Both the position numbers and the translations under genes were made by a program. The notes beneath the pieces are model-generated. The model made no database searches. It was not told where the DNA came from and saw nothing but the letters and a program-made list of their open reading frames with translations. From a bacterium (lineage in GTDB: Bacteria > SAR324 > NAC60-12): a stretch of 25,199 nt of DNA. The first letter of the stretch is position 1. Each line of letters opens with the position of its first letter. Positions 3,598 to 25,199 of the stretch are shown in pieces. Location: positions 1-25,199 of the forward strand of contig CBDDTI010000098.1 of NCBI GenBank assembly GCA_965233585.1, in the 5' to 3' direction.

Positions 3598-4284
3598 TTA
3601 AATGGAGGTATTATATGCTCTCATGGGCCGTTCGTCGGGGAAAATATGACTCCTCAACCTGACTAGATCGTTCTGTCGCTGATGAAAATCTAGCAAAATG
3701 TATCCGTATGGCTTTTCCTTGGTTGCCGTCCGATACGCTTCATTTAACAAGTGCCCGTTCCCGGGAAACACTTGTTTTGCAAGATGAGATACGGCGCTTT
3801 TATCTCTGGGGTTGTTAAATAAAATCATGTATTGCGAGTTGATGCTGAGCGTTCTGAGCTCGCTTTTGGCGCCAAACAAGCTCTGACATAAGAACACGGT
3901 AAAACAGTTGTAATGGTGTGTCAGAACCGTGAAAAAATGCTTCAACACCTGCCCGACTTCGTCTAAGTAATCATCAAATACCACTATTTTGGGTAGATTT
4001 TTCGGGAACATCTCCAGTATGTCCTTCATTTCCTCAACGGAGTTCGGCACGGATGCGAATTTATAAAAGGATCTATCCTCCTGGTTTGCATTCATCCGTC
4101 TCTCCATCTCATCGTACGCTTGCTGAGACTCTTTGAAAAATAGTAGCATGCATCGAGGCGTGGGTGAGAAGAACACGTCTTTGTCTTTGACCAATTTTTT
4201 CAACCATGATGTTTTTCCGCAAGAGGTTGGACCTACCACCATCAAGTTCGAGGGAATATTGAAACGCGTATCGAATCCTGACAT
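3598..4284 (-). CDS. A32/FtsK-like genome packaging ATPase
   Basis: Walker A GPTSCGKT, Walker B IVVFDD, then RTLSINSQYMILFNNPRD and KPYGYILLD; first ATG at 4284 (ORF track starts at TTG 4305). Confidence 0.93.
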   Translation of the reverse strand: MSGFDTRFNIPSNLMVVGPTSCGKTSWLKKLVKDKDVFFSPTPRCMLLFFKESQQAYDEMERRMNANQEDRSFYKFASVPNSVEEMKDILEMFPKNLPKIVVFDDYLDEVGQVLKHFFTVLTHHYNCFTVFLCQSLFGAKSELRTLSINSQYMILFNNPRDKSAVSHLAKQVFPGNGHLLNEAYRTATKEKPYGYILLDFHQRQNDLVRLRSHIFPDERPMRAYNTSI

Positions 4285-4314
4285 TGCATTAATTTTTTTC
4301 CCCAACTACGAGAT

Positions 4315-7300
4315 TTACTGTATTTTCTTACATGGATGTAAATGACATTTTTTAATTTGACTACTTCCCAAAGCTAACGTGCACTTTCCACAAGGCAGCA
4401 CATATCGCTTCGAGTCCATGGCTGAGAGAGCAATTTTCCGTTGGTAAGTGGTGCCAATCCGATGGTTTTTTGACTTTAAATGGTTGAAAGATTTATATAT
4501 CAAACTTGCACTATTCAAGCATTCCTCGTAATCGGCAAAGGACAATTGATTATTGATGCTGCTCTTTTTGAGGCCTTTGCAAATTTTCTTGGTCGAAATT
4601 TTTTTTGTTTTTAAATTTTTGACTGTCATACTATAACATTTCGGTCTCAGTCCAATAAATTCCGTAATTGCGGCTTTTCCTTTCATTTCATCTTTAAAGT
4701 AAAACAGGTGGTTGGCTCTGCTGTTGTCGTACAATTCGTGATCATTTTCGTATTTTGAAAAATCAAACATGTGCTCAATTGACTTTAATTGTTCTATCAA
4801 ATTGTCACATTTGACACTAAATAAAAAGGAGTCTGTGTCTGAGAAACATAATTTTAAATTTTTCCGACCGAAATGCTCTTTAAACTTGTCGTAGGATTGA
4901 TACATAAAAAGTTTGCTCAATTCCAAAATGGCAAATCCAACAGCTAACGGTTTTTTCATTTCAATCGAGTTGGGCTTCTTCATGACTGCTACCAGATCCT
5001 GGTTGATGATTTTAAAATTGGATACGTGCTGACCTATGCATGCTTTTCTTAAACTTTTCTCATCATCACACAAAACAATCTCGATGTAATTTCTGGCGTT
5101 TTCTGAAAAAAAGAGGAGAAAATCATTAAGTCAACATCTTTACAAAAATCATGCAACTTTCTTTTTCATGTTTACCTATGAATTTGCCGAAGGTCGCATT
5201 TGCAAAAAGTTTAAACAGTCGCAATTCGAAATCTGTCTTCGCCTCCGACCTCAATTTTGTAATCTTGGTGATAAAGTTCTTTAGAAAATCCTTCTGGGTG
5301 AATTTGATCGCTCTCCTGATCCTGATCAGCTCGAGTCCACGTTCGAGATAATATTTGAGGTTATCCAACAGAACCACATATTTGCGTCTCGTGTAAAATG
5401 TGGCCAGCAATTTCCTTGAAGAATATCTACGCTTCTTGTAATCTCGATAAGCGTGCTTTCTCAAAAGTTTCCTGTTGAATGGCGATAGATCCTCAAAGCC
5501 TACTGTACCGGTGTACGGGGCCAGAGGAAATTGATCATCCCTTTTGTGATACTTTGCTGGGTAGAAAAGGTCCACCTCGAAAGCGTAGCCAGTCTCGCTC
5601 TGTGTTGGTAAATTTAAAATATCTTTGGCAGACCATGTTCTCAGCTCGTCCTTCTCGATCCACTCGAAATCTCCTACGGGTAATTTAAATGTTTCCATGC
5701 TACCGTAGAGATTATTGGCTGTAAAGAACGGAGGGAAAAAATTAAACTCTGTTTAATTGATTTAGTCCCATAGTTTGTCTTGAAGGAGGAAAATGGAAAA
5801 AAAAAAAAATTTACCATCAACATAGAGTAAATGATCGCCTGGAGATTTCGGATCGTCGCTTCCCCTCGCATGTCTTGTGGCAATAAAACTTTGCCCGCCT
5901 CTTACACCTTTGGTGAAGAACTGTTCCATTTCAGGCTGATCAAACAAATCTAGAGAGCCGGGCGGTTTGCTGTCAAGACGTTTCTCGCTACTCCCTCTCT
6001 CATCCTCGTAAAACATCCGGAGCATAACATCGAACGATAAGCCCGGTATTCCTGTAATTAATTTTCCAAGAGAAAAAAGGATGATTTGGGAATAAGGAAT
6101 TTTTTTTTTTGCACTTCGGAAGAGAAATACTCACCCAGATAATAAACAGGATCCAGCTTAAAGTGTTGAATGACCATTTCTCTGTACCTAGTGAAAATTT
6201 CAGCCAGCAAAATGACGTCTAAGGCGCAATACAAGTTCATGTAATCCTCCATTGTTTTACAGCCGAAAAATTTGAACACATCTTTCCCGTGTTTGTGGTC
6301 TTCAGCGGAGATATGAGTCTCATTTAACCTCGAATAAAATGCCTCTCTTGAAGGAAACTCGCTCACTTTCAACGACTCATATGATGTAAAATGCTCATAG
6401 GCATACACTCCTTTCCTTTTTAAAAGTTTCAATCCGCGAGATTTTTTCCTCAATGGTAATTTGACATACGGCTGGAACTGGCGGAGGATGGGAAAGGTGA
6501 ATGATTTATCCTGACATAAATCTGTCATTAACGAGTCGAGACTGGACGATATGTGCTCCAAAGAGTCTCTGATTTGAAAACGGCCTATGGTGACAGTGCG
6601 ATATTTTTCCTGGTTTCTAGCCATTACTCGTGTAGCGCGCCCCATTTTTTCTATTATCAGATGAATGTCGTATCTAAAAAAGAAAAAAAATCACACATCA
6701 ATTAACACCTTTTTTCCATTCTCCATTCGAAAAAGTATTCTTCCTGCTAAAATTCTTACCCCTGACCATTGTGGAAATAAATGGGAGTTAGATACGGCCC
6801 TTGTCGATGTAGGTTGCAAATAGCATGAGCAGCTTGAATGTTTCCTCCCGACACGTGATCGTGATCCACCACTTTCCTGTACAAACGCGAATGATCATCG
6901 AATTTTTTCTCGCAAATGTGGCAATGGGTAGCTTCTCGGTATTTTCGCCATTGCACGTTTGAAGCCTTGATTTGACCAGTGCTCCGGAAGCGTTGTTTCC
7001 TATTGTTGACTATACTTTCATAACCGCTTAATTTCGATAAAAACACTTCGACAGCATCGTCACCGCTGTAGGTCTCTTGGTAAAAAACGTCACTGTCAGA
7101 ATCTACAAAACAAATGGAAAAGCCACATGCTTTGTGTTTGTTCAACACTTGGCTTGTAGATTTTTCACAGTCACATTTTAATGAGTTTTTGTTGCATTTC
7201 CTGCATACTTTTTCTTTTTGCCTCGAGTCTTCTTCCATGTAGCACTCGAAATCTGCAAATCCAACGACAGGAGCTTTGAAGCCATTTCTTTGTTTGGAAA

Positions 7301-8920
7301 AATTTAAAACGCTTCCCTTGGGAGGGTACACCACTGTTTGTTTATCTTGCTGACATATTTCTTGATGCGAATTTTTCTTCTCTTTAGGGTATTGGTATTG
7401 TCATCTAGCGAGGATGATTTTTTCCCTCTGAGGGTAAAATTTACCCAGAGGAAACAGTTTTGAATGGGTGATTTATTTTCGAGTCGAGCCTCAATTTCCC
7501 TCAAAATGAAAGTGGCCTGCCCTTGCAACATCTCCCAAAACTAGCAAGACTACCCTTCACAATTACCCCAGAGGGTAAAAATTACCCCCACTAGATGACA
7601 ATACCCTTAGAAACAAAATTCATCAGACACACTTCACAATAGTAATGATTGAGTGGATAAGGAGCTTGCTTCAGGCTTTGTTTTCGTCCATTTAAAAAGC
7701 CCCTAATGTTTTTGATGGTAAAAAAATGATGCTCATGGTTCAAACCGTTCAAAGATGAAGACATCTGCGAATGGAACCTTGTCACACCTGCTTGGCCTTG
7801 GCAAGATAAAAGTTCACGGTCACTTTTAATTAACAAAACATTTAAAACATTTTTATATTTTTTCTGTCTCCCTCTTATGTTTGAAAAAGTGTCCAATACA
7901 CAAATTTCACTCTCACTTTCGAAGAACACTCGAATTGTCAGCGGAAGGTGATTGTTTCTTTTGACAAACTTGTTAATCTGCTTAAAATTTAAAGGGAATT
8001 TAATGCCACTCAAATTAAACTTTCTAATGTACTTGTCTGGGAAGTGGTCACAGTGCTTGATGCTGACAGTGGCTGGCCATAAATGTCTTATTACACAATA
8101 CAAGAAATTCTTCTCATCATATGTGGTTTGCCAATGCACACTCTTGCACTTCAACAAGTACTTAGGCACAATGACAGAGTTAGAGTTCATATTTTTTTCT
8201 TGGGAGGTGCTCCTTTTTCTCCTCTAATTTCTCATCAACTCTCTCTGTCTCTCGGTCGGCTTTCAATCTTCACGTTGAACCGGGCTTGGTTGCAACAAAA
8301 CAAACATCATAGAGTAAGATGTCACAAGCCTCAAGATTTTCAAAACGCCAACCTGACCCGCGTGTCAAAAGATCCTCTTCCCTGGCCAAGGCACCTTGCA
8401 ACAATCGACTGATTTTTCTCTGGATACGCCTATCTCCTTCTAGTTCATTGAACACCAATCCTTTGCTGCGAAGGCTAAAAGTGTCGTTATCTGAGCTCTT
8501 GACTGGGCCTCCCTCTGATGATAAGTCAGAAATTTCGTAGCTGGCAGATATGACTATGCTGGCACGGAAAACGGTTCGTGTCATCAATTCCGTTTTTATC
8601 AGGTTGAAAATTTCTTTCAGAGATTTTTTTGAGTTGCAAAAATCAGCTAATGTCTGTTTTTCCGATGACAGGTCCTTTGTAAAAATGCAAACTCGATCAT
8701 TGATAGCTGATTTTTTTCGAAACACTAAAAGATCCTCATGTTCAGTTGACACGTGAAACCTTAAATCTTTTCTTTTGCTAAAGCCATCAGAGCAAAAGGA
8801 GCAAAAAAATCTCTGTTTACTTGAGCTTGTGGTGCTTTCACTGTGTTGATGAGATAATAAATGCCTGTCCAGGGCTCTTTTTCTTGAAAAGGAAATGTTG
8901 CACAAATGACATTTCTTCAT
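4315..8920 (-). CDS. polB: Protein-primed family B DNA polymerase, spliced. Segments: 8920-~8306, ~8223-7605, 7381-6760, 6673-6135, 6051-5815, 5718-5176, 5102-4315
   Basis: N-terminal two C2H2 fingers and GSGW; ExoI FADFEC; CHIC...DHDH...H.ICN Zn insert; joins rebuild HNGQG|YDIH (ExoII), YYL|GIPGLSFD, YVD|ANNLYG (motif A), KLFANATFGKFI|EN (motif B); FSDTDS (motif C). The junction at 8224-8305 is uncertain. Confidence 0.93.
5103..5175 (-). other. Spliceosomal intron in polB (73 bp)
   Basis: G|GTAAAC...TTTTTTCAG|; join gives FGKFIENARNY in frame. Confidence 0.9.
5719..5814 (-). other. Spliceosomal intron in polB (96 bp)
   Basis: G|GTAAAT...CTTTACAG|; join rebuilds catalytic YVDANNLYG. Confidence 0.93.
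6052..6134 (-). other. Spliceosomal intron in polB (83 bp)
   Basis: G|GTGAGT...TAATTACAG|; join gives DPVYYLGIPGLSFDVML. Confidence 0.92.
6674..6759 (-). other. Spliceosomal intron in polB (86 bp)
   Basis: GG|GTAAGA...T-rich tract TTAG|; join rebuilds ExoII FHNGQGYDIHLI. Confidence 0.93.
7387..7606. mobile_element. 220-bp MITE (PIF/Harbinger-Tourist-like) inserted in polB
   Basis: TTA duplicated at 7384-7386 and 7607-7609; TIRs GGGTATTG(GTATTG)TCATCTAG / CTAGATGACAATACCC; removal restores CEVC-x12-HQEIC. Confidence 0.88.
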
Positions 8921-11411: not shown

Positions 11412-11552
11412 AACAATATCTGGAGGCAAAAAAATTCCTACAAAACTGGAGAGTCCCCCAAAATTATAGCTCAGTCTGCTCAGACAAGTTCATCTATTAA
11501 CACCTTTCAGCTAGTCTAAATTTAAGAACAAGGTTTTTTCCTGACTTCAAAC

Positions 11553-12673
11553 ATGGGCTCATTGAAATCTCTGAAGAATGGCAAAAAGAAAGCAGAGATC
11601 GAGGAGAAGAACAAACTCAAGATCAAAATCAAGAAAGTGGCGAAAGAGGGGCGTTCGAAAAGGTCTCCGCCCACGGTCATTAAGAAGTGCAAAAACTCTT
11701 CTTCTCAGAACAAGACCATTAAGAAGGTTGGTAGGAGCAGTTCAAAGGCAAATAAGGACAAAGGACATAAATTAGTAGCTGCGGAGGACGAGGACGAGGA
11801 GGGGGAAGATTCAGATGAGACAATGTCTCTGGCTGAAACCAGCGACTCTGACTGGGAGCAAGGTGATTCTGCTCATGCCATGTCAGACACTGAGACTGAT
11901 GTTGAAGATGAGGTGAGCGAAGATGATGAAGAAGAAGAGCCGATCAAAAAGAAACCGAAATCTGAAAAAAGCAGCAAGAAAAACCAAAAAAACAAATCAA
12001 ACTATTGCTATGATGAACCTCAGATTGTCAACAAGATTGAGCTGATTGATATGCCCAGGAAAAAGCAAATGCAAATTTTTGATCAAAGTCAGTGGAACAT
12101 AGCCAAGGCAGTAAGAACTGCCGAAATTGATATCGACAAATGGATGGAGCATCATTCGACCAGGGACAGTTATTTTTTCGGGGAGGACGAGGTAAGGGAA
12201 AAATAGTTCAACTTAATTAAAAAACTATGCAGTTGGTAAATTGTGCCATTTTCCCCTTCAGTATATTTACCCCAACTTCTCGACCATGCGAAAATTTGTG
12301 GAAGCATTGGCAAATGGTGAGGTAACACCACAGTCTGTCAGCTTGCCTTTTACTCCAATGAACAAGACCATCAGCAACAATCCAAAAGTTGTCATAGGTA
12401 TCAGTGGAGTGAGGCATCTTCAAAGAGCTGGGGGTCTGGCTGTTTGGCCAGTTTTTTATCTGTCCAAGGAACAAGTAAAATTATTTTACTTTAATAATTT
12501 GTCTATGATGATTCATTTCTTTTTCCTTTGTTTATTTCCAGTACAATGACAACAATAAATCTTTCAACACCAAGGTGCTGAGAGTCAATTTTCCTCTCCA
12601 TAAATTAGATGAAGTTGCAGAGGGTTTGCAAGAAATGGCACGTGGATTGGGATTCACACCTCCAGCTAAATGA
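11553..12673 (+). CDS. Three-exon 327-aa protein (11553-12191, 12262-12474, 12542-12673): Lys-rich, then acidic/Ser-rich N-terminus; globular C-terminus, possibly PC4-like
   Basis: Phase-0 introns GAG|GTAAGG...CCCCTTCAG| (70 bp) and CAA|GTAAAA...TTTATTTCCAG| (67 bp) give one continuous ORF. Confidence 0.8.
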
Positions 12674-14216: not shown

Positions 14217-14756
14217 TCATCTTGTAGGGGTAATTTTTACCCTCTGTGGGGTAATTTTTACCCTCTGTAGGGAGCTTTTTTTTTTAGACAGAATTTTTAC
14301 TATATGTGAAACAATTCTCTCATTTCTACGTAGGGTGTTCCCATCAAACAGGGTGTGAAAAAGGGGAGGGTCACAATTAGGGTAAAAATTGACAAATAGG
14401 CAGAATGCTGCAGTGTGCCAGCCGCAAAATAACGAATCAAAATCTTGGATTGGGCGAGAGAGAACGCATTTAATTTTGCCACATCGTATCCATTTTTTTA
14501 GAAAATCAAAAAGGTGGGAATTGTAGATTGGTGGTAATAAAGCAAAACTATCGAAATACCACAATACATTGTCTCGGTCTATGTAGATGGCAATGAAGTG
14601 ACTCCCAGGATGATCAGCTTTGGACAGATTTATAATGGCAGAGCAGCACCTTCCCCACAAATTGAGAGGTACCCTGTCAACAGGGTATACTCCAATAAAA
14701 TTTTCACACTTTGGCAATAAAAAATTTTCTAGAAAATGATTGCTGAGACCAGACAT
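14217..14756 (-). CDS. Adenain-like cysteine (maturation) protease
   Basis: IINLS...PGSHFIA (His), YFDSF (Asp), IQ...LFCG (Gln/Cys). Confidence 0.92.
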   Translation of the reverse strand: MSGLSNHFLENFLLPKCENFIGVYPVDRVPLNLWGRCCSAIINLSKADHPGSHFIAIYIDRDNVLWYFDSFALLPPIYNSHLFDFLKKWIRCGKIKCVLSRPIQDFDSLFCGWHTAAFCLFVNFYPNCDPPLFHTLFDGNTLRRNERIVSHIVKILSKKKSSLQRVKITPQRVKITPTR

Positions 14757-14773
14757 CACGATCCTGTCTTTCT

Positions 14774-16108
14774 CTACTTCTCATCAGCTCTGATTACTTG
14801 GCCTTTTTCTTCGATTTTGATTCCAGAGTTGAAGATGGTGTAAGACAACAAATAGATAGGGTGATCGTGTGCTGATTTGAAGCCGAATTCAGCGTCCAAT
14901 TTCCCTGACTCGTCTGGATGGATATGGTATCCGTTGCACCGATCCGGAGTCAGGTCTGCGGTTAGAAAGCACCTTCCTGCCTTAAAAACCTCTTTCGTAA
15001 TACCGCAAGAATGATTCGATATCCCGAATCCGATACTGTCATACAGATGCCTGTACAAATCAATGAAATTGTCAGTGTCAAAGTCTGGCTGGAAAGGTTT
15101 GGGGAAAACGCATTGCCCGTTCTTGAACAAATTGAATCGATTTAAATCGAAATGTTGAAAATTGAATGGGTTTTTGTCGCTGCTGTGCGTCATGGCTTCA
15201 TTATGAATCATGACGAAAATGACTTGTTTAGGCAGGAGTCCGGAAGCCACGTTTGTCAACGAATAGGAGGTAACCCCTGGAGGTATTACAAATTGCTTCA
15301 ACTGAGTTCCTTTATACGGAATGTAGCAAGGCTCCTGAGTCAGTTTTAATTTGAATTGGTTCCTGAGCTGCTCTGTTGGTAAGACTTTTCTCATTTTCAA
15401 CTTCAAATCTTTTAAAATTATGTTAAAAGATTTGGAAGGCTCGTTGTGAAGAAGGCCAAATTTCGGGTTATTTCTCACGAGTTTGACTTTCAGATCCACA
15501 TTGGGTGGTAAATATTTATCAGTGTACATGATATCTGCCCCCAACCTGCTGCAGAAGTAGACTTTTTTTCCATTCTCTATCAGGCTTCTACGTTTTATCA
15601 AGTCAGCATCGTCAGCAGGGTCGTGTTTGTCTATTTGATTTTCATCTTCAACAAAGTAGCCCTCTGCTCTCAATTGACATTCTTTGCTCTCTCGATCATA
15701 AGAAAGCTCGGTTTGAATAAAATTTCTAAAAGGATAAGAGTTTGCCGTGCTTAAATCGCAGACTTGTGTTCCATTTATGTATATTTCCACTTGGCTGAAC
15801 AGATTGTGCGCAAAATTATTCGCCAAATACACTTTGTCAGTTGCCTTCACTTCCTTTTCATCATCTGTTTTGACAACAAAATGCCCAATCAGTCTGCTTT
15901 GGTCCAAAATGACGGAGCATTCTTCATCCCGTGGAATAACGAATTCAATCGGGCCGGAGTTGGTGACACTCGTAACACTGCTATAAATCACATCTCTCCC
16001 ATCCAAGAGACTAGTATCCTGTCCCAGCGGAGCATGAAGATCGAGAGCTTGTTCTATCAAATCGTCCTGCTCAACGGCAAGACCGCCGATACCGCCTTTT
16101 TCAGACAT
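14774..16108 (-). CDS. Major capsid protein 1 (Polinton-type double jelly-roll)
   Basis: GPIEFVIP, NLFSQVEIYING, YPFR, KYLPPNVDLKVKLVRN, LPKQVIF, NPFNFQHF and DLTPD, as in Polinton MCPs. Confidence 0.88.
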   Translation of the reverse strand: MSEKGGIGGLAVEQDDLIEQALDLHAPLGQDTSLLDGRDVIYSSVTSVTNSGPIEFVIPRDEECSVILDQSRLIGHFVVKTDDEKEVKATDKVYLANNFAHNLFSQVEIYINGTQVCDLSTANSYPFRNFIQTELSYDRESKECQLRAEGYFVEDENQIDKHDPADDADLIKRRSLIENGKKVYFCSRLGADIMYTDKYLPPNVDLKVKLVRNNPKFGLLHNEPSKSFNIILKDLKLKMRKVLPTEQLRNQFKLKLTQEPCYIPYKGTQLKQFVIPPGVTSYSLTNVASGLLPKQVIFVMIHNEAMTHSSDKNPFNFQHFDLNRFNLFKNGQCVFPKPFQPDFDTDNFIDLYRHLYDSIGFGISNHSCGITKEVFKAGRCFLTADLTPDRCNGYHIHPDESGKLDAEFGFKSAHDHPIYLLSYTIFNSGIKIEEKGQVIRADEK

Positions 16109-16191
16109 TGCAGAACTTTAACTTTTTTTCCCTCGCTCACTGTCACGCAAAAAAACTTCACCTTCTTAAATTAGTGTCACAATGCATTCAT

Positions 16192-17532
16192 CTAATATTT
16201 GAGTTTCGTTACTTGGAGATTTTTATCGATAACAATTCCGGAATTGTAGAAAGCATAAGAGATCAAAGTGTATGAATCATTAAGGGGCCTTGAAAAAGTC
16301 AAATCCAATTCAAGATTTCCGGCAACGGATGGGTGATGGTGGAAAGAATTACATTTGTCAGGGGTCAAATCAAATGCCAGAATTGTATACCCTTTTCTGA
16401 AATTCTTTAGCGTTACCAGGTTTTTGGTGCCTACGTTGCTTTGAAAATGCTCGTATAATTCAACATAATTACCGCTCGCAAAGTCACATTCGATGGGTTT
16501 TGGGAGTAGCGGTCTTCCGTTGTTTTTCAAATTAACACTTGATATATATGCGTGTTCAAAATAGAAATGTCTCGCATCATACTTCCTGGTCAAAAGCTTA
16601 CTCTTTACAAGCACGAAAATAATCTGATTAGGCAGAATTTGATCATTTATATGGTTCGCACTGTAGACGGTCGAATTTTCAGGAATATGGTGATGTATTA
16701 GCCGACTGTCTTTGTAAGGTAGGAAACAAGGTTCCTGAAGTAACTTAGTCTGAAACCGGTTGCGCACGCGTTCAGAGGCAAGCACCTTTCTCATGTGAAG
16801 CTTCAAATCTTTCAAAACAAAATTGAAAGTTTTGTCCGGTACTTCTTGATCAATGCCAAATGTCGGATTAAACCTTGACAATTTCATTTTGATCTCAACG
16901 TTCGGAGGTAAATACTTGTCCGTGTGTAAAATATCGGCCGGTATGGTCGAATTGAAATATACCTTTTTTCCATCCAAAATCATCTCGTGGAACTGAGTCC
17001 TATCTTTGCAATTATGAATTCTTCTAGCCTCCTCTGTGAACATCCAATAGCAATACTCCCTATGATCTTTGTAATAGCCTTCTGCTTTGCCTACATTATT
17101 GATGACATTCCAATGGTAGGAGAGAGAGGAATCAATATAATGCTTGAAGGGATAGGAGACTGGTGCACTTAAATCACAAACTTGTGTTCCGTTCAGATAG
17201 ATTTCAATTTGTGAGAACAAGCAGGCTCCCCAGTGATGCGATAACGTGACATTATCGTTTGATGTTACTGGGGTGCCGTCCTTATCCAGCACAACAAAGT
17301 GCCCCTCTAATCTCGCTTGATTGAGAATAAAAAAACATTCAGGGTCTGGAGGGATTTGAAACTCAACACCTTCAAGACCTTCAACAGGAGAAACACTGCT
17401 GTAGCACACGCTACGACCCTTTATCAGATCGTTTTCAGCTTCGAGAGGAGTGTGAAGATCTAGACTTTTCCCCTTCAACTCGTTGATTTCAACATTTAAT
17501 CCTCCCACGCCTGCGCGCATCAACGATGCCAT
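16192..17532 (-). CDS. Major capsid protein 2 (paralogue of MCP1)
   Basis: Collinear motifs LFSQIEIYLNGTQVCDLS, YPFK, TDKYLPPNVEIKMKL, LKDLKLHMRKVL, FDLTPDKCN; ATG at 17532 or 17520. Confidence 0.86.
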   Translation of the reverse strand: MASLMRAGVGGLNVEINELKGKSLDLHTPLEAENDLIKGRSVCYSSVSPVEGLEGVEFQIPPDPECFFILNQARLEGHFVVLDKDGTPVTSNDNVTLSHHWGACLFSQIEIYLNGTQVCDLSAPVSYPFKHYIDSSLSYHWNVINNVGKAEGYYKDHREYCYWMFTEEARRIHNCKDRTQFHEMILDGKKVYFNSTIPADILHTDKYLPPNVEIKMKLSRFNPTFGIDQEVPDKTFNFVLKDLKLHMRKVLASERVRNRFQTKLLQEPCFLPYKDSRLIHHHIPENSTVYSANHINDQILPNQIIFVLVKSKLLTRKYDARHFYFEHAYISSVNLKNNGRPLLPKPIECDFASGNYVELYEHFQSNVGTKNLVTLKNFRKGYTILAFDLTPDKCNSFHHHPSVAGNLELDLTFSRPLNDSYTLISYAFYNSGIVIDKNLQVTKLKY

Positions 17533-18086
17533 TTTCTCAAGCAAATGACGTGACTATTAGCAATATAAAACTGAGCTGCAAAATTGATCTCCTAGATGAA
17601 ACAACGATCTCCTTAAATAAGGAGGCGGACACAAGATCTCACGGGAATTTTACGGTGGTTAAAAAAAGATATGTCTACATTATTTTCAAAAAGCGGAAAA
17701 ACAAGCAGAGCTACCACGTGAACATCACCAAGGTTCCATCTTCAGCAGAGATAATGTCCTCGATTGACCAATTGAGCCGCATAATAACTAACAACTTTAT
17801 CGTGAAGTCTTATAACATTGAAAATATGACATGTTCTTTTGATGCAGGCTTTAACATTCCACTGATCGAGGTATTTGATCAATTGGAGAAAAAAAGCTTT
17901 GTCAAGAAAGCCCGATTCAACCCGGAAAGATTTCCTGGAATATTTGTGACTTTCGAATTCAACACAATTCTATTGTTTTCATCTGGAAAAATGGTAATAA
18001 TTGGAGCAAACGACATGCAAAGTGTGGAGGATAGCTTAGACAAAATCTTGCACTTTTTGAAACCTTATAAAGCACTGCAAATATAA
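17526..18086 (+). CDS. TATA-binding protein (TBP)-like, 186 aa, core domain only
   Basis: Second repeat IENMTCSFD..F.IPL...FNPERFPGI...TILLFSSGKMVIIGA matches the TBP signature; first repeat (ISNIKLS...YIIFKK...HVNITKV) is degenerate. Confidence 0.9.
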   Translation: MPFSQANDVTISNIKLSCKIDLLDETTISLNKEADTRSHGNFTVVKKRYVYIIFKKRKNKQSYHVNITKVPSSAEIMSSIDQLSRIITNNFIVKSYNIENMTCSFDAGFNIPLIEVFDQLEKKSFVKKARFNPERFPGIFVTFEFNTILLFSSGKMVIIGANDMQSVEDSLDKILHFLKPYKALQI

Positions 18087-18153
18087 ACTACCGCGTAGTT
18101 TGAACTTTACCGTAAAGGCATAAACACCGCCTCCCGCTGGAAACAAAAAAAGT

Positions 18154-18903
18154 ATGCCTGCTCCAAATGAGCGGAGCTCCGGCTGTGAGCATCGGCATAC
18201 GGTGGATGAAATATCTTGCGGGGATTTGGTCTGTATAGACTGCGGTCTTGTACTGGATAAAATCTACCTCTACCCTATGAAGGCTAATCGTGCGACCTGG
18301 AGAGAGAGAATGGCATCTGAGTCCTACTACGACAATAATAAAAAAAATGATCGCATTCATGTGCAAAACTGCATAGATATGATTGAACATATGTGCGGTA
18401 AATGTAACATTGACAGCGAAGATGTCAAAGCTTGCATATTGAAGAAATGGCAGGATTTAGGAAAAATATACAGAAAGAATGTTTGTCAGGAGAGTCTGAT
18501 GCTAGTTTGCATGTACATGACGTTAATCGAAATGAAAGTGCCACGCCCGTTGAATCATTTATGCACCCAGACAAACATAGACCCGAAAAATGTGTGGAAC
18601 TATCTCAAAGCCAACAACTCATTTTACAGGCCGAATTTAATGTGCGAATATTTTCTGCATGACATGAACTTACCATACAAAGACATTGAGCAAATAAGAT
18701 CATTGGTCAAAAAGTTTGAATCAAAGTACGTTTTTTCTCAAAAAACCTTGATTGCGTCGAGCGCCTATATCTATTTAAGAAATCGAGACGCAACTGAGAA
18801 AAAGGCAAAGATCAGCATAAGTCAATTGGCAAAACAATTAGGCGTAAGCTCAACGGCCATGTACAGGTGCATTAAGAAAATTGAATCATCTAGCAGAGCA
18901 TGA
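18154..18903 (+). CDS. TFIIB-like transcription initiation factor, 249 aa
   Basis: Zn ribbon CEH...GDLVCIDCGLVL; reader-like TWR; two cyclin-fold-like repeats (ESLMLVCMY...VPRPL; KTLIASSAY...ISISQLAKQLGVS). Confidence 0.87.
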   Translation: MPAPNERSSGCEHRHTVDEISCGDLVCIDCGLVLDKIYLYPMKANRATWRERMASESYYDNNKKNDRIHVQNCIDMIEHMCGKCNIDSEDVKACILKKWQDLGKIYRKNVCQESLMLVCMYMTLIEMKVPRPLNHLCTQTNIDPKNVWNYLKANNSFYRPNLMCEYFLHDMNLPYKDIEQIRSLVKKFESKYVFSQKTLIASSAYIYLRNRDATEKKAKISISQLAKQLGVSSTAMYRCIKKIESSSRA

Positions 18904-19334
18904 ATTTCCACCGAGGTGCGCCTATTCAACAGGGTGCAGGTTTAGGTTCTATCTTCAGTGGGCTTTTTAGAACGCTGGTGCCTGTAGCTAAGACTGCGGC
19001 AAAAACTGTAGGCAAAATTGCGAAAAGCAAAGGAGTCAGGTCAGCAGGAAGATACTTGAAGAAGGAGGCCACTCGAGCAGCTCTTGACTCAGCTTTAGAG
19101 GCGCTGGAGGGGAAAAAAGTCGGCACCGCGGCAAAAAGGAGACTAAAAACTGCCACGAAAAATATTCTGCTAGCAGGCAAGGGAGTTGAAGCTCCTTATG
19201 CAAGGGAGAGAGGCACCAAGAGGAAGAATGTCAAATTCCAAATGGGAAATGCCAAAAGAAGAAGAAAAAAAATAGAACAGAAACCGCTTTTTGACGACGA
19301 CGATGACCACTACGACGAAGACGACGATTACTAA
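18900..19334 (+). CDS. 144-aa basic protein with N-terminal QxGxGLG plus amphipathic helix (Polinton-type putative core protein)
   Basis: IQQGAGLGSIFSGLFRTLVP, Lys/Arg/Ala-rich body, acidic tail. Confidence 0.8.
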   Translation: MNFHRGAPIQQGAGLGSIFSGLFRTLVPVAKTAAKTVGKIAKSKGVRSAGRYLKKEATRAALDSALEALEGKKVGTAAKRRLKTATKNILLAGKGVEAPYARERGTKRKNVKFQMGNAKRRRKKIEQKPLFDDDDDHYDEDDDY

Positions 19335-20409
19335 AGAGGAGTTTATGGATGCTTACGCATCACCAGGAACACCTTTGGCCTTTTCATCGCCTTACCGTGT
19401 TTACAAACATTTCCAGGGGGCCATACCGTTGAAGACTATTAAAAAATGGATGCACGGCTTGGACAGCTACACATTGCACAAACAAGCAAGAGCGCCCAGA
19501 CCGAGAAACCCTACCTACGCCTACAACAAGAGGTATCAGTTTCAAATCGACTTGATCGAACTAGGGCGGTTAGCCGAGGCCAATGATGGGCATCGCTTCT
19601 TGTTAACGGTGATTGACATATTTACCAGATTTGCTTTCGTAGAGCCCCTCAAAAACAAAACAGCACCGGCTTTCTTGGAGGGATTCAAAGCAATCATGTC
19701 AAGAGCTGAGCAATTTCCGCAAAAAATTTTAGCTGACAGAGGTTCCGAGATAAAGAACAAATTGTTCAGAGACTACTGTCGGCAAAATAACGTTCGTCTT
19801 CTGCACAGCGACAACTTTGTGCATGCACCATTCGTGGAAAGATTTAACCGGACGTTAAAAACACTGATGTACAAATACATGACGGCAAAAGAGACGGATA
19901 GATTCATCGACGTGCTGCAACCGTTGGTGAACACCTATAATTTACGTACACATAGGATGATTGGTATGTCACCTGCCCAGGCCGAAAATGAAGAAAACGC
20001 TCATTTGATTAGAAGGAAACAGGAGGAGCGTTATTCGGAAAAATCCAGACGACCACCCAGATTTAAGAAAGGACAGACCGTGAGAGTGAGTAAACTGAAG
20101 GGACAATTTGATAAGGGATATGATGAGCAATTCCTTGAGGAGATTTATAAGATTAAAAGAGTATTCACACGCCTGCCCATTCCCACCTACGAGTTAGAGA
20201 CGTTGGATGGGGATGAGACGATTGAGGGGAATTTTTACGGAAACGAATTAACTTTAACGGAAGTGCCGAAAGTCTTTAAGATTGAAAAGATTCTGAAAAG
20301 GAGAAAGGACAAAACTAGCGGACAAAAGCTGGTTTACGTGAAGTGGAAGGGATATAGAAACCCGAGTTGGATTCCAGAGCGAGATGTGATAAATTTGAAC
20401 CAATCGTGA
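19303..20409 (+). CDS. Retroviral-like (rve) DDE integrase with C-terminal chromodomain
   Basis: FQIDL, LTVIDIFTRFA, ADRGSE, VERFNRTLK; chromo-like FKIEKILKRR...YVKWKGY..PSWIP; ATG at 19303 or 19345. Confidence 0.96.
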   Translation: MTTTTKTTITKEEFMDAYASPGTPLAFSSPYRVYKHFQGAIPLKTIKKWMHGLDSYTLHKQARAPRPRNPTYAYNKRYQFQIDLIELGRLAEANDGHRFLLTVIDIFTRFAFVEPLKNKTAPAFLEGFKAIMSRAEQFPQKILADRGSEIKNKLFRDYCRQNNVRLLHSDNFVHAPFVERFNRTLKTLMYKYMTAKETDRFIDVLQPLVNTYNLRTHRMIGMSPAQAENEENAHLIRRKQEERYSEKSRRPPRFKKGQTVRVSKLKGQFDKGYDEQFLEEIYKIKRVFTRLPIPTYELETLDGDETIEGNFYGNELTLTEVPKVFKIEKILKRRKDKTSGQKLVYVKWKGYRNPSWIPERDVINLNQS

Positions 20410-20413
20410 AATT

Positions 20414-21940
20414 ATGGACGGGCACATCATTTACTGCATTTCTAACGCTAGCACAGATTTTTACGAAAACACATTGACCAGCTTTACAAACTTTTTCCCC
20501 AAAAACTTCGAATTTGTTAAAAGGCATTGGGAAATTGGAGTCTCGGCATTCGGTCTTGATTTAAACATCAAGGAAAATTTAGAAACGGACGTGATTCAGA
20601 TTAAGTCAGACATCACAGCTTTTACTGAAGCTGGGTATTCTTCAATTCTGTACACAACCCGCTTGCCTTCTTTGAGAAAACAGGAATACTTTTATCACAG
20701 CGTGAAAAATATTAAATATTTCCCGTTGCGCAACACATCCATAAAGTCAATAAAGTTGGAAATCATTGACGCAGCGGAAGAAAGATTAAAACTCAAATCA
20801 GGTCAGCCTACCATAGTTCAATTCCATTTGCGCAGAAGGGTGAAGAAGATGCTTACAAACCACGTGCAGATTGACTCGAAAATGGATGATGGCCTAAATT
20901 CTCAGCAAAAAAATAATAATTTCGAGGTTCATTTAAAAAAGCCCATTTATTTGAAGCACGGAGCAAAAATTGCTTTGACCGACATTTCCTTCCCCAACAG
21001 CATTAGCAACATACCCGAATTTGTGCCTGAGAAGAAAATTGTGGTTTCCTCCAAGCCTTTTAGTTTTGAAATTGATATCCTCCCTAGTGCGAATGAAGAT
21101 CCGAGGATGCGCAGACTTTTAGGAGAATACATAGAATTTACATACCCAATCAAAGGAGGAAAACAACATTTCGGAATAAATTACATTGCCAAATTCTACC
21201 AAACAGACACATTTGAACCGCCAAAAGTTAAACTTGAATTCACAAACCAAACAAGAAATTTATATGGTATAGAAGGAGATGTCACAGTGAGCGAAGGTGA
21301 AAATTTTGTGACATCAGAACCCGTATTAGACACCGGCATCTTTACTCACAAAGTCCGAATTACAATAGAGCCTTTCAGAGGTTATTTCACCGTGAAAAAG
21401 GGAAATTGCTCGACCCCGGACTGCATAATTCAAAACCTTGTTTCGAATCTGGACCTGAATCTCGCAATGTTAGTGGAGATTCACAATCATCAAGGTCATC
21501 TTAGAATCAAACAGACTAGCGAGGCCAACAGACGCAATCTACTAGCCAGATTGGAAATACCAAGCGAAATGAAAAAATTGCTCGGACTCGAGCAAAATGA
21601 CACTGCTGATTTAGATGAAGAAACCCGCCAATTCACAAGCAGGCATCCCCTTGACTTGAACGCTCTTTATCCTGGAGTGATGGTGTGCTACACAGATTTT
21701 GTCAGTCACTCAATTATAGGAGACCGGTTTTATCCTGTGTTTAAAATGATTCCTCTACCAAAAATTACAGAAAATGATAATTATGTATCCGTTCATTTCA
21801 AGAATTTTGAATTTTTAAAATGTAACACGACTCGTCTGGATAAATTACGATTTCAATTGAAAAGACTCGATGGAGGATTTATTGATTTTTATGACAACAA
21901 AAAAATTATAATGAATTTAGCCATACAAAATCCGAAATAA
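20414..21940 (+). CDS. Minor capsid (penton-like single jelly-roll) protein, 508 aa, apparently two tandem domains
   Basis: SNAS.DFYENTLTSFT...WEIGV; second start-like motif NNNFEVHLKKPIYL...IALTDISFPNS; C-terminal YTDFVSHSIIGD...RFQLKRLDG. Confidence 0.78.
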   Translation: MDGHIIYCISNASTDFYENTLTSFTNFFPKNFEFVKRHWEIGVSAFGLDLNIKENLETDVIQIKSDITAFTEAGYSSILYTTRLPSLRKQEYFYHSVKNIKYFPLRNTSIKSIKLEIIDAAEERLKLKSGQPTIVQFHLRRRVKKMLTNHVQIDSKMDDGLNSQQKNNNFEVHLKKPIYLKHGAKIALTDISFPNSISNIPEFVPEKKIVVSSKPFSFEIDILPSANEDPRMRRLLGEYIEFTYPIKGGKQHFGINYIAKFYQTDTFEPPKVKLEFTNQTRNLYGIEGDVTVSEGENFVTSEPVLDTGIFTHKVRITIEPFRGYFTVKKGNCSTPDCIIQNLVSNLDLNLAMLVEIHNHQGHLRIKQTSEANRRNLLARLEIPSEMKKLLGLEQNDTADLDEETRQFTSRHPLDLNALYPGVMVCYTDFVSHSIIGDRFYPVFKMIPLPKITENDNYVSVHFKNFEFLKCNTTRLDKLRFQLKRLDGGFIDFYDNKKIIMNLAIQNPK

Positions 21941-23308: not shown

Positions 23309-23862
23309 GATTGAACTAAAACTTTTTCTTCAGTCTGTGATACCGGACTGCATCGAGCTGAATGTAGACCGAATTCATCTCGATGCAAACCGAATTCATC
23401 TCAATGTAGACTGAAATCATCTCGATGTAGACCGAATTCATCTCGATGTAAACCGAATTCATCTCGATGTAAACCGAATTCATCTCAATGCAAGCCGAAT
23501 TCATCTCAATGTAGACCGAATTCATCTCGATGTGAACCGAATTCATCTCAATGTAGACTGAAAGCACCTCAATGTAATTTACATTGAGGTGAAATGAGAT
23601 GCTTTGAGGCTGAAAGCATCTCAATGTAATTTACATTGAGGTGAAATGAGATGCTTTGAGGCTGAAAGCATCTCAATGTAATTTACATTGAGGTGAAATG
23701 AGATGCTTTGAGCTGCATTCAGATGCCATTTCAATTGCAACAAGCTGCTTTCCATCTGCAATGAGATGAAAACAGATGCATTTGAGATGATTTGAGCTGC
23801 TTTCAGATGCTTTCAGCCTGAAAGCATCTCATTTGAGCTTCATGCTACCCGGTTTCTATACA
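23309..23862 (-). repeat. Right terminal inverted repeat (~554 bp), with 9 units of the 21-mer (23361-23560) and 3 units of the 52-mer (23557-23712)
   Basis: Reverse complement of 501-984 with one extra unit in each array. Confidence 0.95.
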
Positions 23863-25199
23863 ACAGTTATTGCATATGAGGCCTCTGAACACACCTTACC
23901 TCTATTGTTTGTCCCACGCTTGTGAGGACCTTAGGAGGCAGAATGTTTAACCCTGCCTTTCCTTCAAGGACAGCGGGAAAGAGTAACTAGCTTTTTAACT
24001 GTGTGAGTTCTGTCAAGCACGCAATATGAGTGTGACTTTATCACCTGTGTCATGATTTTGTTAAAAAGCAGTAACTTACATTTCACATGAGGTGTTCTCT
24101 CTTTCAGAGGAATTTGGACAATCAAGGAGAACAGTCATGAAGATTCTTCTACTTTTTTGCACTTTATGGAGTTCCATATACATTGATCCTTCTGATGGGG
24201 GAACTTTTAGTAAGTATAATTACTAAGTTAGATTCTTCTTTCCTTGCTTCATTGGTTGAATAATATGTTTGGGCCATGAGCAGGATAAGCCTATAGCCAT
24301 TTCCATGATGCAATGCCACGTTAGGTCCCCAAGGGTACCAAGAATGAAATGAACTGGATGTAATGAAAAAACTGCCATTGAAAGGCTGGGGATCGAACCC
24401 GGAACATGATTGCATTTCATGCAAAAAATGCAATAATTATTTCTTTAGCTACCAAACACTGTGAAGTCAACAGATGGCTCTGTAAGTCAGAAGGCTAAAT
24501 CAGAAAGGTTTAATCCTTGATGATTTCAAGGTGTTAGACTGATTTTTTACACTCTCATTTAGTTTTAATACTTTTGGCATATACTTTTCAAGCAAAATTA
24601 AAATGTTTTTGACATCTCCCTATCAGAATAACTTCTGTAGGATTGATTATCTCTTCAAAATCATTTCTGAAGTCACATGGCTTCATATAAAATATTCCAA
24701 AATGTGCATGCATTCAATAAGGCTGTGCAGGGTGAAACTTTGCCAAAAAATTAATAAGCATGCATGCAGGTTTATTAGATAGGACATAGTAGTTGGATGG
24801 TTGTGAGAGTATTTTTTACGTTATGGATATTCAAATTCCCTGGGATTTGAAAGAAATTCTGACTCCCACCAGAAAGTAATTTTTCCCATCTTATAGAGCA
24901 ATCTTCCATTTTCCAGTCCCCTAGGGGATGGTATATTACTACATTAATTGTTGTTACTGATAGCATTTTCCACAGGTATATATTTTTTTTGACTTAATAC
25001 CTGCCAAAATTTTGCACCTGGAGTAATATATATTTCCCAAAATGGCCGGCATTTTCTTCCCGTGGTAAAAATTTCCACCAAAGGGGAATCGTATTTCCAA
25101 TAGGCAATTTCCCTTCTGGAATGAAGCGAGGGGTGTAGGGAACTTGCATGAGGGAATTATGATTCCCCGAGGGTGGAGGCTTTCTCCAAGGGAACAAAA

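Follow-up and report, generated by a model that had tools for sequence, protein, structure and literature searches.

An adjacent pair of TBP and compact TFIIB genes in a Polinton-type mobile element

The DNA analyzed in this study is contig CBDDTI010000098.1 (C98) of assembly GCA_965233585.1, which is filed under the bacterial lineage SAR324, and its whole length of 25,199 bp is referred to below as the window. The window is one complete mobile element, which spans approximately 23.4 kb and is bounded by terminal inverted repeats (TIRs), and this element is of the Polinton/Maverick type, nuclear and integrated in a eukaryotic genome. Between a capsid-like gene and the integrase gene of the element we found two adjacent genes, which encode a TATA-binding protein (TBP) and a compact TFIIB-like factor.

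The TBP gene and the compact TFIIB gene

The two genes and the TIRs that bound the element lie at the following positions.

17526..18086, + strand: viral TATA-binding protein of 186 amino acids (aa), with a derived N-terminal repeat and a canonical C-terminal repeat
18154..18903, + strand: compact TFIIB-like factor of 249 aa, with a ribbon (residues 11-35), a linker (36-63), two cyclin repeats (64-249) and a terminal helix-turn-helix
501..947: left TIR, which contains short tandem repeats and pairs well from approximately position 501
23343..23869: right terminal inverted repeat, which pairs with the left arm

Both open reading frames (ORFs) are free of internal stops and are co-oriented. The TBP ATG (17526, + strand) overlaps head-to-head with the ATG (17532, - strand) of one of two capsid-like genes (gene b), and the TFIIB stop codon overlaps the ATG of the ORF at 18900-19334. 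A sequence-only reading of this DNA had described two intact, co-oriented ORFs that overlap their neighbors at both ends, and its coordinates and both overlaps proved correct. The TBP and TFIIB identities that it had assigned, together with the folds that it had proposed to check by structure, were borne out by Pfam, PDB, AlphaFold/Foldseek and family-profile comparisons.

In the TBP ORF, Pfam PF00352 was detected at residues 96-179 only, with an E-value of 2.5e-16 (59.7 bits against a cut-off of 22.9), and the same domain is carried by all 24 TBP homologues. Every one of the 35 PDB sequence matches of the ORF was a TBP, the best being archaeal (5e-15). The AlphaFold (AF2) model, for which 25 homologues were used, reached a predicted local distance difference test score (pLDDT) of 91.6 and shows the S1-(H1)-S2-S5-H2 pattern twice. 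When this model was compared with the PDB by Foldseek, ranks 1-44 were all TBP, with template modeling (TM) scores of up to 0.71 over 186-195 columns, that is, over the whole chain, and the model thus has the two-repeat saddle fold. The C-terminal repeat contains the invariant residues F136 and F151, which align with the phenylalanines of FPG and F-S-S-G-K in archaeal TBP. At the sequence level, the family alignment shows that F54 of the N-terminal repeat is invariant and F42 conserved; this repeat has diverged in a way specific to the family and carries Y-H-V-N-I-T-K as an invariant motif. The TBP profile A2 scored archaeal TBPs at 4.5e-26 to 7.6e-22 versus approximately 1e-17 for eukaryotic TBPs. 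In this comparison only the viral C-terminal repeat aligned, to both archaeal repeats, and the preference may reflect the more symmetric repeats of archaeal TBPs. The ORF at 17526-18086 is a genuine two-repeat TBP gene.

The top PDB sequence match of the TFIIB ORF was human TFIIB (E 0.0023). Two profiles were used for this gene, namely A1, comprising 16 close TFIIB homologues, and A3, comprising 40 members of the wider family with the window protein as the first row. A1 matched TFIIB at 3.8e-5, and A3 matched human TFIIB at 1e-27 with the ribbon and both cyclin repeats aligned (the cyclin repeats with human residues 98-291 at a domain E-value of 1.4e-21, and the ribbon with human residues 24-55). 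The other A3 matches were yeast TFIIB (2.2e-16), Brf1 (2.7e-16) and archaeal TFB (3.3e-16). The ribbon ligands C11, H13, C27 and C30, arranged as C-x-H ... C-x-x-C, are invariant in all 40 sequences, and three relatives score above the Pfam ribbon cut-off (P0061, P0069 and P0070 at 29.5, 30.6 and 34.6 bits, respectively). At the other end of the protein, Pfam HTH_11 was found at residues 216-245 (26.2 bits against a cut-off of 25). The AlphaFold model (pLDDT 75.8) consists of three short strands followed by ten helices (64-248), and its linker at residues 36-63 is short, variable in length across the family and low in pLDDT. Foldseek placed TFIIB or Brf chains at ranks 1-34, and the neighbors in BFVD, a library of viral structures, were giant-virus TFIIBs and an archaeal-virus TFB. 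The window protein is a reduced member of the TFIIB family, with a ribbon and two cyclin repeats and without the B-reader and B-linker.

The element, its source and the conservation of the pair

The TIR arms (494-947 versus 23343-23869) are 94-98% complementary over approximately 450 nucleotides (nt) each and lie 22.4 kb apart. No target-site duplication was readable at the element ends, the exact termini of which are blurred by mismatches. The long TIRs, a protein-primed PolB (pPolB) above its Pfam cut-off and an rve integrase above its cut-off identify the element as Polinton-type, and a Pfam scan of 21 ORFs of the window found no RNA polymerase domain; on both counts the sequence-only reading was right. 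The pPolB gene contains four interruptions, of which three carry GT...polypyrimidine...AG signatures, and the positions of the breaks are identical across all diverged lineages of the element. Because of these signatures and shared positions, the breaks are spliceosomal introns, and the alternative of a decayed pPolB gene was rejected. Since the element combines these introns with the rve integrase and a C2H2 zinc-finger protein, which was also found in the Pfam scan, we assigned it to the nuclear genome of a eukaryote.

The assembly that contains the window consists of 5 large contigs (0.14-1.07 Mb) and approximately 740 small ones (approximately 9 kb), all with a G + C content of approximately 40%. 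This "prokaryote" assembly is a mixed bin, in which a contig with a eukaryotic element was binned together with a bacterium. Homologues of the element genes are present on 64 contigs of the same assembly, and some contigs hold two or three Polinton copies in tandem or nested arrangement. Contigs from three sequencing runs contain DNA of the element. Among these is a contig over the TBP gene (window 17445-18174) from a second study's seawater metagenome run (X5), with 12 differences in 730 letters (approximately 98% identity), and an almost identical element is therefore present in a separate, independent sample.

Within the assembly, all 41 TBP places are followed by a co-oriented TFIIB gene 53-141 bp downstream, and in each of the 39 capsid-integrase neighborhoods, the window included, the pair lies between the two genes. 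The shared gene order is protease, capsid gene(s) and then, in the divergent direction, TBP, TFIIB, basic protein, integrase and a 508-aa protein; it is found in at least five lineages, across which identity to the window is 39-62% for TBP and 29-45% for TFIIB. The TBP ORF has at least 180 aa in 39 of 41 cases, and the TFIIB ORF spans the whole match equally often (39/41). The pairwise ratios of nonsynonymous to synonymous substitution rates (dN/dS), calculated by the Nei-Gojobori method from pairs that are not independent of one another, had medians of 0.15-0.26 whichever dS bin was considered, for TBP as well as for TFIIB, and gave no sign of neutral decay.

Two other elements of the assembly, on contigs C389 and C273, encode proteins of 291 and 248 aa (L024:6740-7615 and L025:6903-7649, respectively) with a CxH...CxxCGLVL ribbon. 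These proteins match the TFIIB family in hhalign at approximately 91.5% (E 8e-7) over the ribbon and the start of the core only. C389 also encodes a protease-rve-chromo fusion (L024:14833-16242) and a tyrosine recombinase. Further Polinton-like families with TFIIB-like genes may exist.

Outside the assembly, a large protein collection contained 24 TBP and 15 TFIIB relatives, and for three TBP/TFIIB pairs the longest source contigs match in size. Scanning JGI metagenomes with the TBP profile yielded six loci. Two of these, L014 and L015 (27-29% TBP identity), leave room downstream, and in both a TFIIB-like gene comes right after TBP, with relatives of the integrase or of the basic protein nearby. 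The other four comprise one protease-capsid-TBP arrangement followed by the contig end, one contig ending at TBP, one cellular-like TBP without TFIIB and one doubtful locus. The search for the linked pair in other elements, which the sequence-only reading had suggested, was thus successful in all lineages of the assembly and at L014 and L015. No relatives were found in IMG/VR with profiles A1 and A2, and a scan of genome contigs with A2 gave only archaeal cellular TBPs at five loci, which share the word FNPERFPG.

An exhaustive search with the TFIIB profile returned 465 cluster representatives at E <= 1e-3, of which 101 were at 1e-10 or better, and nearly all 465 are 215-280 aa long and match end to end. 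From 150 listed representatives, 50 were chosen in a non-random manner (the first full-length ones and the longer ones), and the Pfam ribbon and/or TFIIB repeat was detected in 47 of these 50 at E <= 0.01. For clusters of 20 of the proteins, the member names were only "hypothetical protein" and "unnamed protein product [Sphagnum tenellum]". Because the compact TFIIB family has as many as 465 representatives, the phenomenon may be widespread and under-annotated. One relative, P0135, a metagenomic protein of 507 aa present in two source collections, is a natural single-chain fusion of the two factors: its residues 2-166 match the TBP family (hhalign 97%, E 5e-11) and its residues 245-482 match the TFIIB family (99.9%, E 1e-33). 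When the TBP family was searched for longer relatives that might be fusions, none came up, which is weak evidence.

Candidate promoters and the probable role of the pair

We examined the window for motifs upstream of its genes and obtained the following candidate sites.

17610..17619, - strand: WATTTAAGRA, 78-87 nt upstream of capsid-like gene b, within the TBP codons L-N-K
16163..16172, - strand: WATTTAAGRA, 55-64 nt upstream of capsid-like gene a
18772..18781, + strand: WATTTAAGRA, 119-128 nt upstream of the basic-protein gene
11519..11528, + strand: WATTTAAGRA, 25-34 nt upstream of the ORF at 11553-12206
18082..18087, + strand: TATAAA, candidate TATA box of the TFIIB gene, which overlaps the TBP stop codon and lies 67-72 nt before the TFIIB ATG

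The window contains four WATTTAAGRA sites where 0.89 would be expected, a count reached by none of 100 shuffles, and all four are located 25-128 nt upstream of co-oriented genes. Among six representative elements, 8 of 14 WATTTAAGRA sites are found 20-150 nt upstream of co-oriented starts (9 of 14 when one more is counted), a zone that makes up 4.4% of the space. Upstream of the TFIIB ATG, either AATATAAA or TATATAAA is present at a distance of 59-121 nt in all six representative lineages. As judged from their sequence and placement, the WATTTAAGRA and TATAAA sites are candidate promoter cores and serve as leads. The L-N-K codons opposite the site at 17610-17619 are conserved across the TBP family, and this stretch may be under a dual constraint as coding sequence and promoter.

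TBP and TFIIB nucleate the pre-initiation complex of RNA polymerase II (Pol II), and TBP bends the promoter core. In cellular TFIIB, the cyclin repeats and the terminal helix-turn-helix bind the C-terminal stirrup of TBP and flanking DNA, and the ribbon docks the polymerase. Weighing the analysis as a whole, we consider it fairly probable that the two genes provide a private promoter-recognition pair, which would recruit host Pol II to the TATA-like promoters of the element. In this mechanism, the viral TBP and TFIIB would together bind the element's own promoter cores, and the ribbon of the viral TFIIB would recruit host Pol II, which is the likeliest partner because the element lacks a polymerase and the pPolB introns point to nuclear expression. 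The pair would thereby offer an initiation route that is less dependent on host TFIID and TFIIB, possibly for the virion-gene (late) class. Redirection of Pol II to late promoters, as put forward in the sequence-only reading, is plausible, and the candidate TATA-like motif upstream of the capsid-type genes is what the window offers for it. The retained parts (the C-terminal TBP repeat, both cyclin repeats, the helix-turn-helix and the ribbon) would form the minimal chain, and the parts given up (the N-terminal TBP repeat, the B-reader and the B-linker) would be links to other host factors or to start-site tuning. A complex prediction of TBP with TFIIB residues 60-249 returned a score of 0.01 (mark, 0.32), which speaks neither for nor against binding.

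We also propose, much more tentatively, that a large unrecognized clade of Polintons runs an orthogonal miniature pre-initiation system, in which a lopsided TBP and a B-reader-less TFIIB, at times joined in a single chain, would read a virus-specific TATA variant (WATTTAAGRA or TATAAA) before virion genes and dock host Pol II without TFIID or TFIIA. If this were true, no virus smaller than these 20-25-kb elements would be known to encode general transcription factors, and the elements would be a candidate source or sink of the TBP and TFIIB genes of giant viruses.

Several observations weigh against a functional promoter-recognition pair. The N-terminal TBP repeat has no Pfam match, and it lacks helix H1 in the model. 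The single TFIIB sequence reaches Zn_Ribbon_TF with an E-value of 0.0016 and 18.4 bits only, below the cut-off of 29. In the TFIIB model, 31 residues are under pLDDT 50, and the TM-scores are low (0.29-0.43, with root-mean-square deviations of 8-20 A), which is probably due to a different domain orientation. The B-reader/B-linker region (human residues approximately 56-97) has no aligned counterpart in the viral TFIIB. In cellular TFIIB these two parts are needed for start-site choice and DNA opening. Because the viral linker is short and variable and this region is unaligned, the viral TFIIB alone might not support initiation. As for the promoters, the motif counts rest on related elements that are not independent, and TATAAAW is not enriched in the window (15 sites versus 10.9 expected, with 12 of 100 shuffles reaching 15). 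Many of the putative promoters lie inside neighboring coding sequences, and coding constraint could therefore mimic motif conservation. Finally, when the whole assembly was scanned with hidden Markov models, no TBP or TFIIB of host type came up that could be used for comparison.

Some of these features would also be expected of a decoy that controls the host, an alternative that we consider unlikely but the most serious of those below. Such a pair would titrate TBP, TFIIB or Pol II of the host, or sit on its promoters, and thereby dampen or reprogram host transcription or counter silencing of the integrated copy. With the B-reader and B-linker essentially absent, a ribbon-plus-core protein could attach to Pol II and to TBP-DNA and yet fail to bring about productive opening. 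In addition, the N-terminal TBP repeat has diverged strongly, and viruses are reported to target TFIIB commonly (PMC8119876). However, a pure inhibitor has no obvious need for both partners to be adjacent at all 41 places or fused as in P0135. Moreover, the DNA-facing phenylalanines of the C-terminal TBP repeat and the terminal helix-turn-helix are conserved, and TATA-like motifs stand before the element's own genes.

The pair could also serve another polymerase, either that of a co-infecting giant virus, in a virophage-like manner, or host Pol III or Pol I, as Brf- or Rrn7-like factors do. Giant viruses do pair their own TBP/TFIIB-like factors with their own polymerases and are represented among the BFVD neighbors, and on the family profile Brf1 comes close to yeast TFIIB. 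Nevertheless, the best match of that profile is the Pol II factor human TFIIB, the protein of 249 aa has no Brf-type C-terminal extension, the pPolB introns and the chromodomain-like end of the integrase (below its cut-off) point to a nuclear life, and nothing on the element contigs was recognized as a giant-virus gene. We regard this possibility as improbable.

A still smaller chance is left for passenger genes, that is, a host TBP and TFIIB recently captured by one element and functionless there. Polintons do pick up host genes, and an adintovirus preprint lists TBP under "homologs of host proteins" (10.1101/697771). This reading is contradicted by the conservation data, because identity to cellular proteins in fold alignments is only approximately 14-22%, the pair has diverged across at least five lineages to the extent given above, dN/dS is low, related pairs occur in distant metagenome elements, and the compact TFIIB family has 465 representatives. 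The claim of the sequence-only reading that the genes reflect long viral residence and no recent capture is accordingly upheld by the 41/41 linkage, the lineages, the dN/dS values and the distant metagenome pairs.

A mobile element of archaea, in which TBP and TFB would be native factors, might be suggested by the "prokaryote" bin, the archaeal best PDB matches, the A2 scores and the FNPERFPG-sharing archaeal loci. This reading is hardly credible and is contradicted by the GT-AG introns with polypyrimidine tracts, and against it also stand the rve integrase with its chromodomain-like end, the C2H2 zinc-finger protein, the preference of the TFIIB profile for human TFIIB (1e-27) over archaeal TFB (3.3e-16), the eukaryotic Atlas neighbors of the capsid-like protein, the mixed nature of the bin and the repeat symmetry that may underlie the A2 preference.

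Recruitment of host Pol II by a private pair has counterparts in larger viruses. Prasinoviruses and chloroviruses are polymerase-less giant viruses with TBP and TFIIB genes. For Chrysochromulina parva virus BQ1, which is also without an RNA polymerase, it has been stated that host Pol II is likely redirected by the virus's TBP and its two TFIIBs (PMC12085832). Such viruses resemble the element in that they encode TBP and TFIIB homologues and no RNA polymerase of their own. The statement of the sequence-only reading that these factors are typical of giant viruses with their own polymerase was therefore too narrow (PMC12085832), and the idea that a viral TBP and TFIIB redirect host Pol II is not new in kind, so that the reading overstated how unusual it is. 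The differences lie in size and arrangement. Genomes of the BQ1 type are at least an order of magnitude larger, with a gene table that runs past 130 kb, whereas the element has 23 kb and integrates; likewise, that table places TFIIB near 63 kb and TBP near 98 kb, not adjacent to each other, whereas the pair in the element is a fixed adjacent module (PMC12085832). Poxvirus VITF-3 is reported to be an atypical TBP/TFIIB-like heterodimer that recognizes promoters and is like the pair in that respect (PMC12917281), but it works with the poxvirus's own cytoplasmic polymerase, whereas the element has none.

Compared with cellular TBP/TFIIB and archaeal TBP/TFB (PDB 1VOL, 1C9B, 1AIS and 1D3U), the pair has the same folds and domain order at 14-22% identity. 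The element TFIIB is approximately 70 residues shorter than cellular TFIIB, its B-reader and B-linker are nearly absent, and C-x-H replaces C-x-x-C in its ribbon. The element TBP differs from its cellular and archaeal counterparts in the derived N-terminal repeat, which Pfam does not recognize and which is modeled without H1. With Polintons/Mavericks, adintoviruses and other MELD viruses the element shares TIRs, a protein-primed PolB and an rve integrase, and it has candidate genes of the packaging-ATPase, capsid and protease types.

As for novelty, the sequence-only reading did not know the pair as a standard Polinton feature. The open literature text searched contained no mention of TFIIB or of a conserved TBP-TFIIB module in Polinton-type elements (figures, supplements and subscription-only work lie outside that search), and among the matches listed for literature joining polinton and TFIIB only giant viruses appeared. 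On the other side, the idea of Pol II redirection is already in print, and a "TBP" label stands in the gene-map legend of an adintovirus/MELD paper (PMC8502044). A conserved module of adjacent and sometimes fused TBP and TFIIB genes, fixed in a clade of integrating Polinton-type elements of approximately 20-25 kb and with a reduced TFIIB architecture, seems to be undescribed so far, as does the large metagenomic family of compact TFIIBs.

Polintons are usually seen as fully reliant on host transcription, and general transcription factors encoded by a virus are regarded as typical of giant viruses. With the module, which is kept under purifying selection, the known range of eukaryotic viruses that encode promoter-recognition factors extends to a smaller genome size than before. 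The module is also a very small natural system in which to study the action of TBP and a TFIIB of ribbon and core on Pol II, an entry point to the question of how virion genes could be activated in dormant integrated copies, and a data point for the debate on the relationship between Polintons and giant viruses.

Other genes of the element

The remaining genes assigned in the window are listed below.

3598..4305, - strand: candidate packaging ATPase, A32/FtsK-like P-loop (Pfam ATPase_2 1e-4 and Pox_A32 0.011, both below the cut-off)
4315..8190, - strand: pPolB, intron-bearing (PF03175 2e-6, 27.5 bits against a cut-off of 25.8, in one exon piece)
14217..14759, - strand: probable adenain/Ulp1-like cysteine protease, assigned from its position and from H/D/Q..C motifs found by eye
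14774..16108, - strand: capsid-like protein, paralogue a (444 aa), paralogous to 16192-17532, without a Pfam match
16192..17532, - strand: capsid-like protein, paralogue b (approximately 446 aa from the ATG at 17532), without a Pfam match and with an Atlas lead
18900..19334, + strand: small, very basic protein with an acidic tail, judged from its sequence a candidate core or DNA-condensing protein
19291..20409, + strand: retroviral-type integrase (rve 3.6e-9, 37.2 bits against a cut-off of 32.6)
20414..21940, + strand: conserved 508-aa protein without a Pfam match, a candidate for the "penton" label that the sequence-only reading gave it

The Pox_A32 score of the ATPase ORF is 15.7 bits against a cut-off of 22.8, and the gene is kept in 44 contigs of the assembly. 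In the pPolB gene, one gap widens to 1.3-2.3 kb in two lineages. The protease ORF had no Pfam match, and it adjoins a capsid-like gene in every lineage. In a related element of the same assembly, the integrase is fused to a Peptidase_C5 domain (22.1 bits against a cut-off of 21.3). For capsid-like protein b, the Atlas language-model neighbors are eukaryotic hypothetical proteins of 450 aa, and one cluster, with PF21738 DJR-like_dom in 15% of its members, gives a lead. The tandem capsid-like paralogues are present in the window lineage and two others, and more distant lineages have a single copy.

The basic-protein gene directly follows TFIIB in all lineages, and its relatives are also found downstream of TFIIB at the metagenome loci L014 and L015. 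The C-terminus of the integrase is chromodomain-like (Chromo 5.2e-5, 23.5 bits, under the cut-off of 25.1). The Atlas neighbors of the 508-aa protein are hypothetical proteins of Preplasmiviricota viruses and of arthropods, which is a lead with low recognition. Near the left end, the window also encodes a lysine-rich, low-complexity protein of 727 aa (1032-3215, - strand) with internal repeats of approximately 40 residues and one C2H2-like motif, and this protein is only partly conserved, in the nearer lineages.

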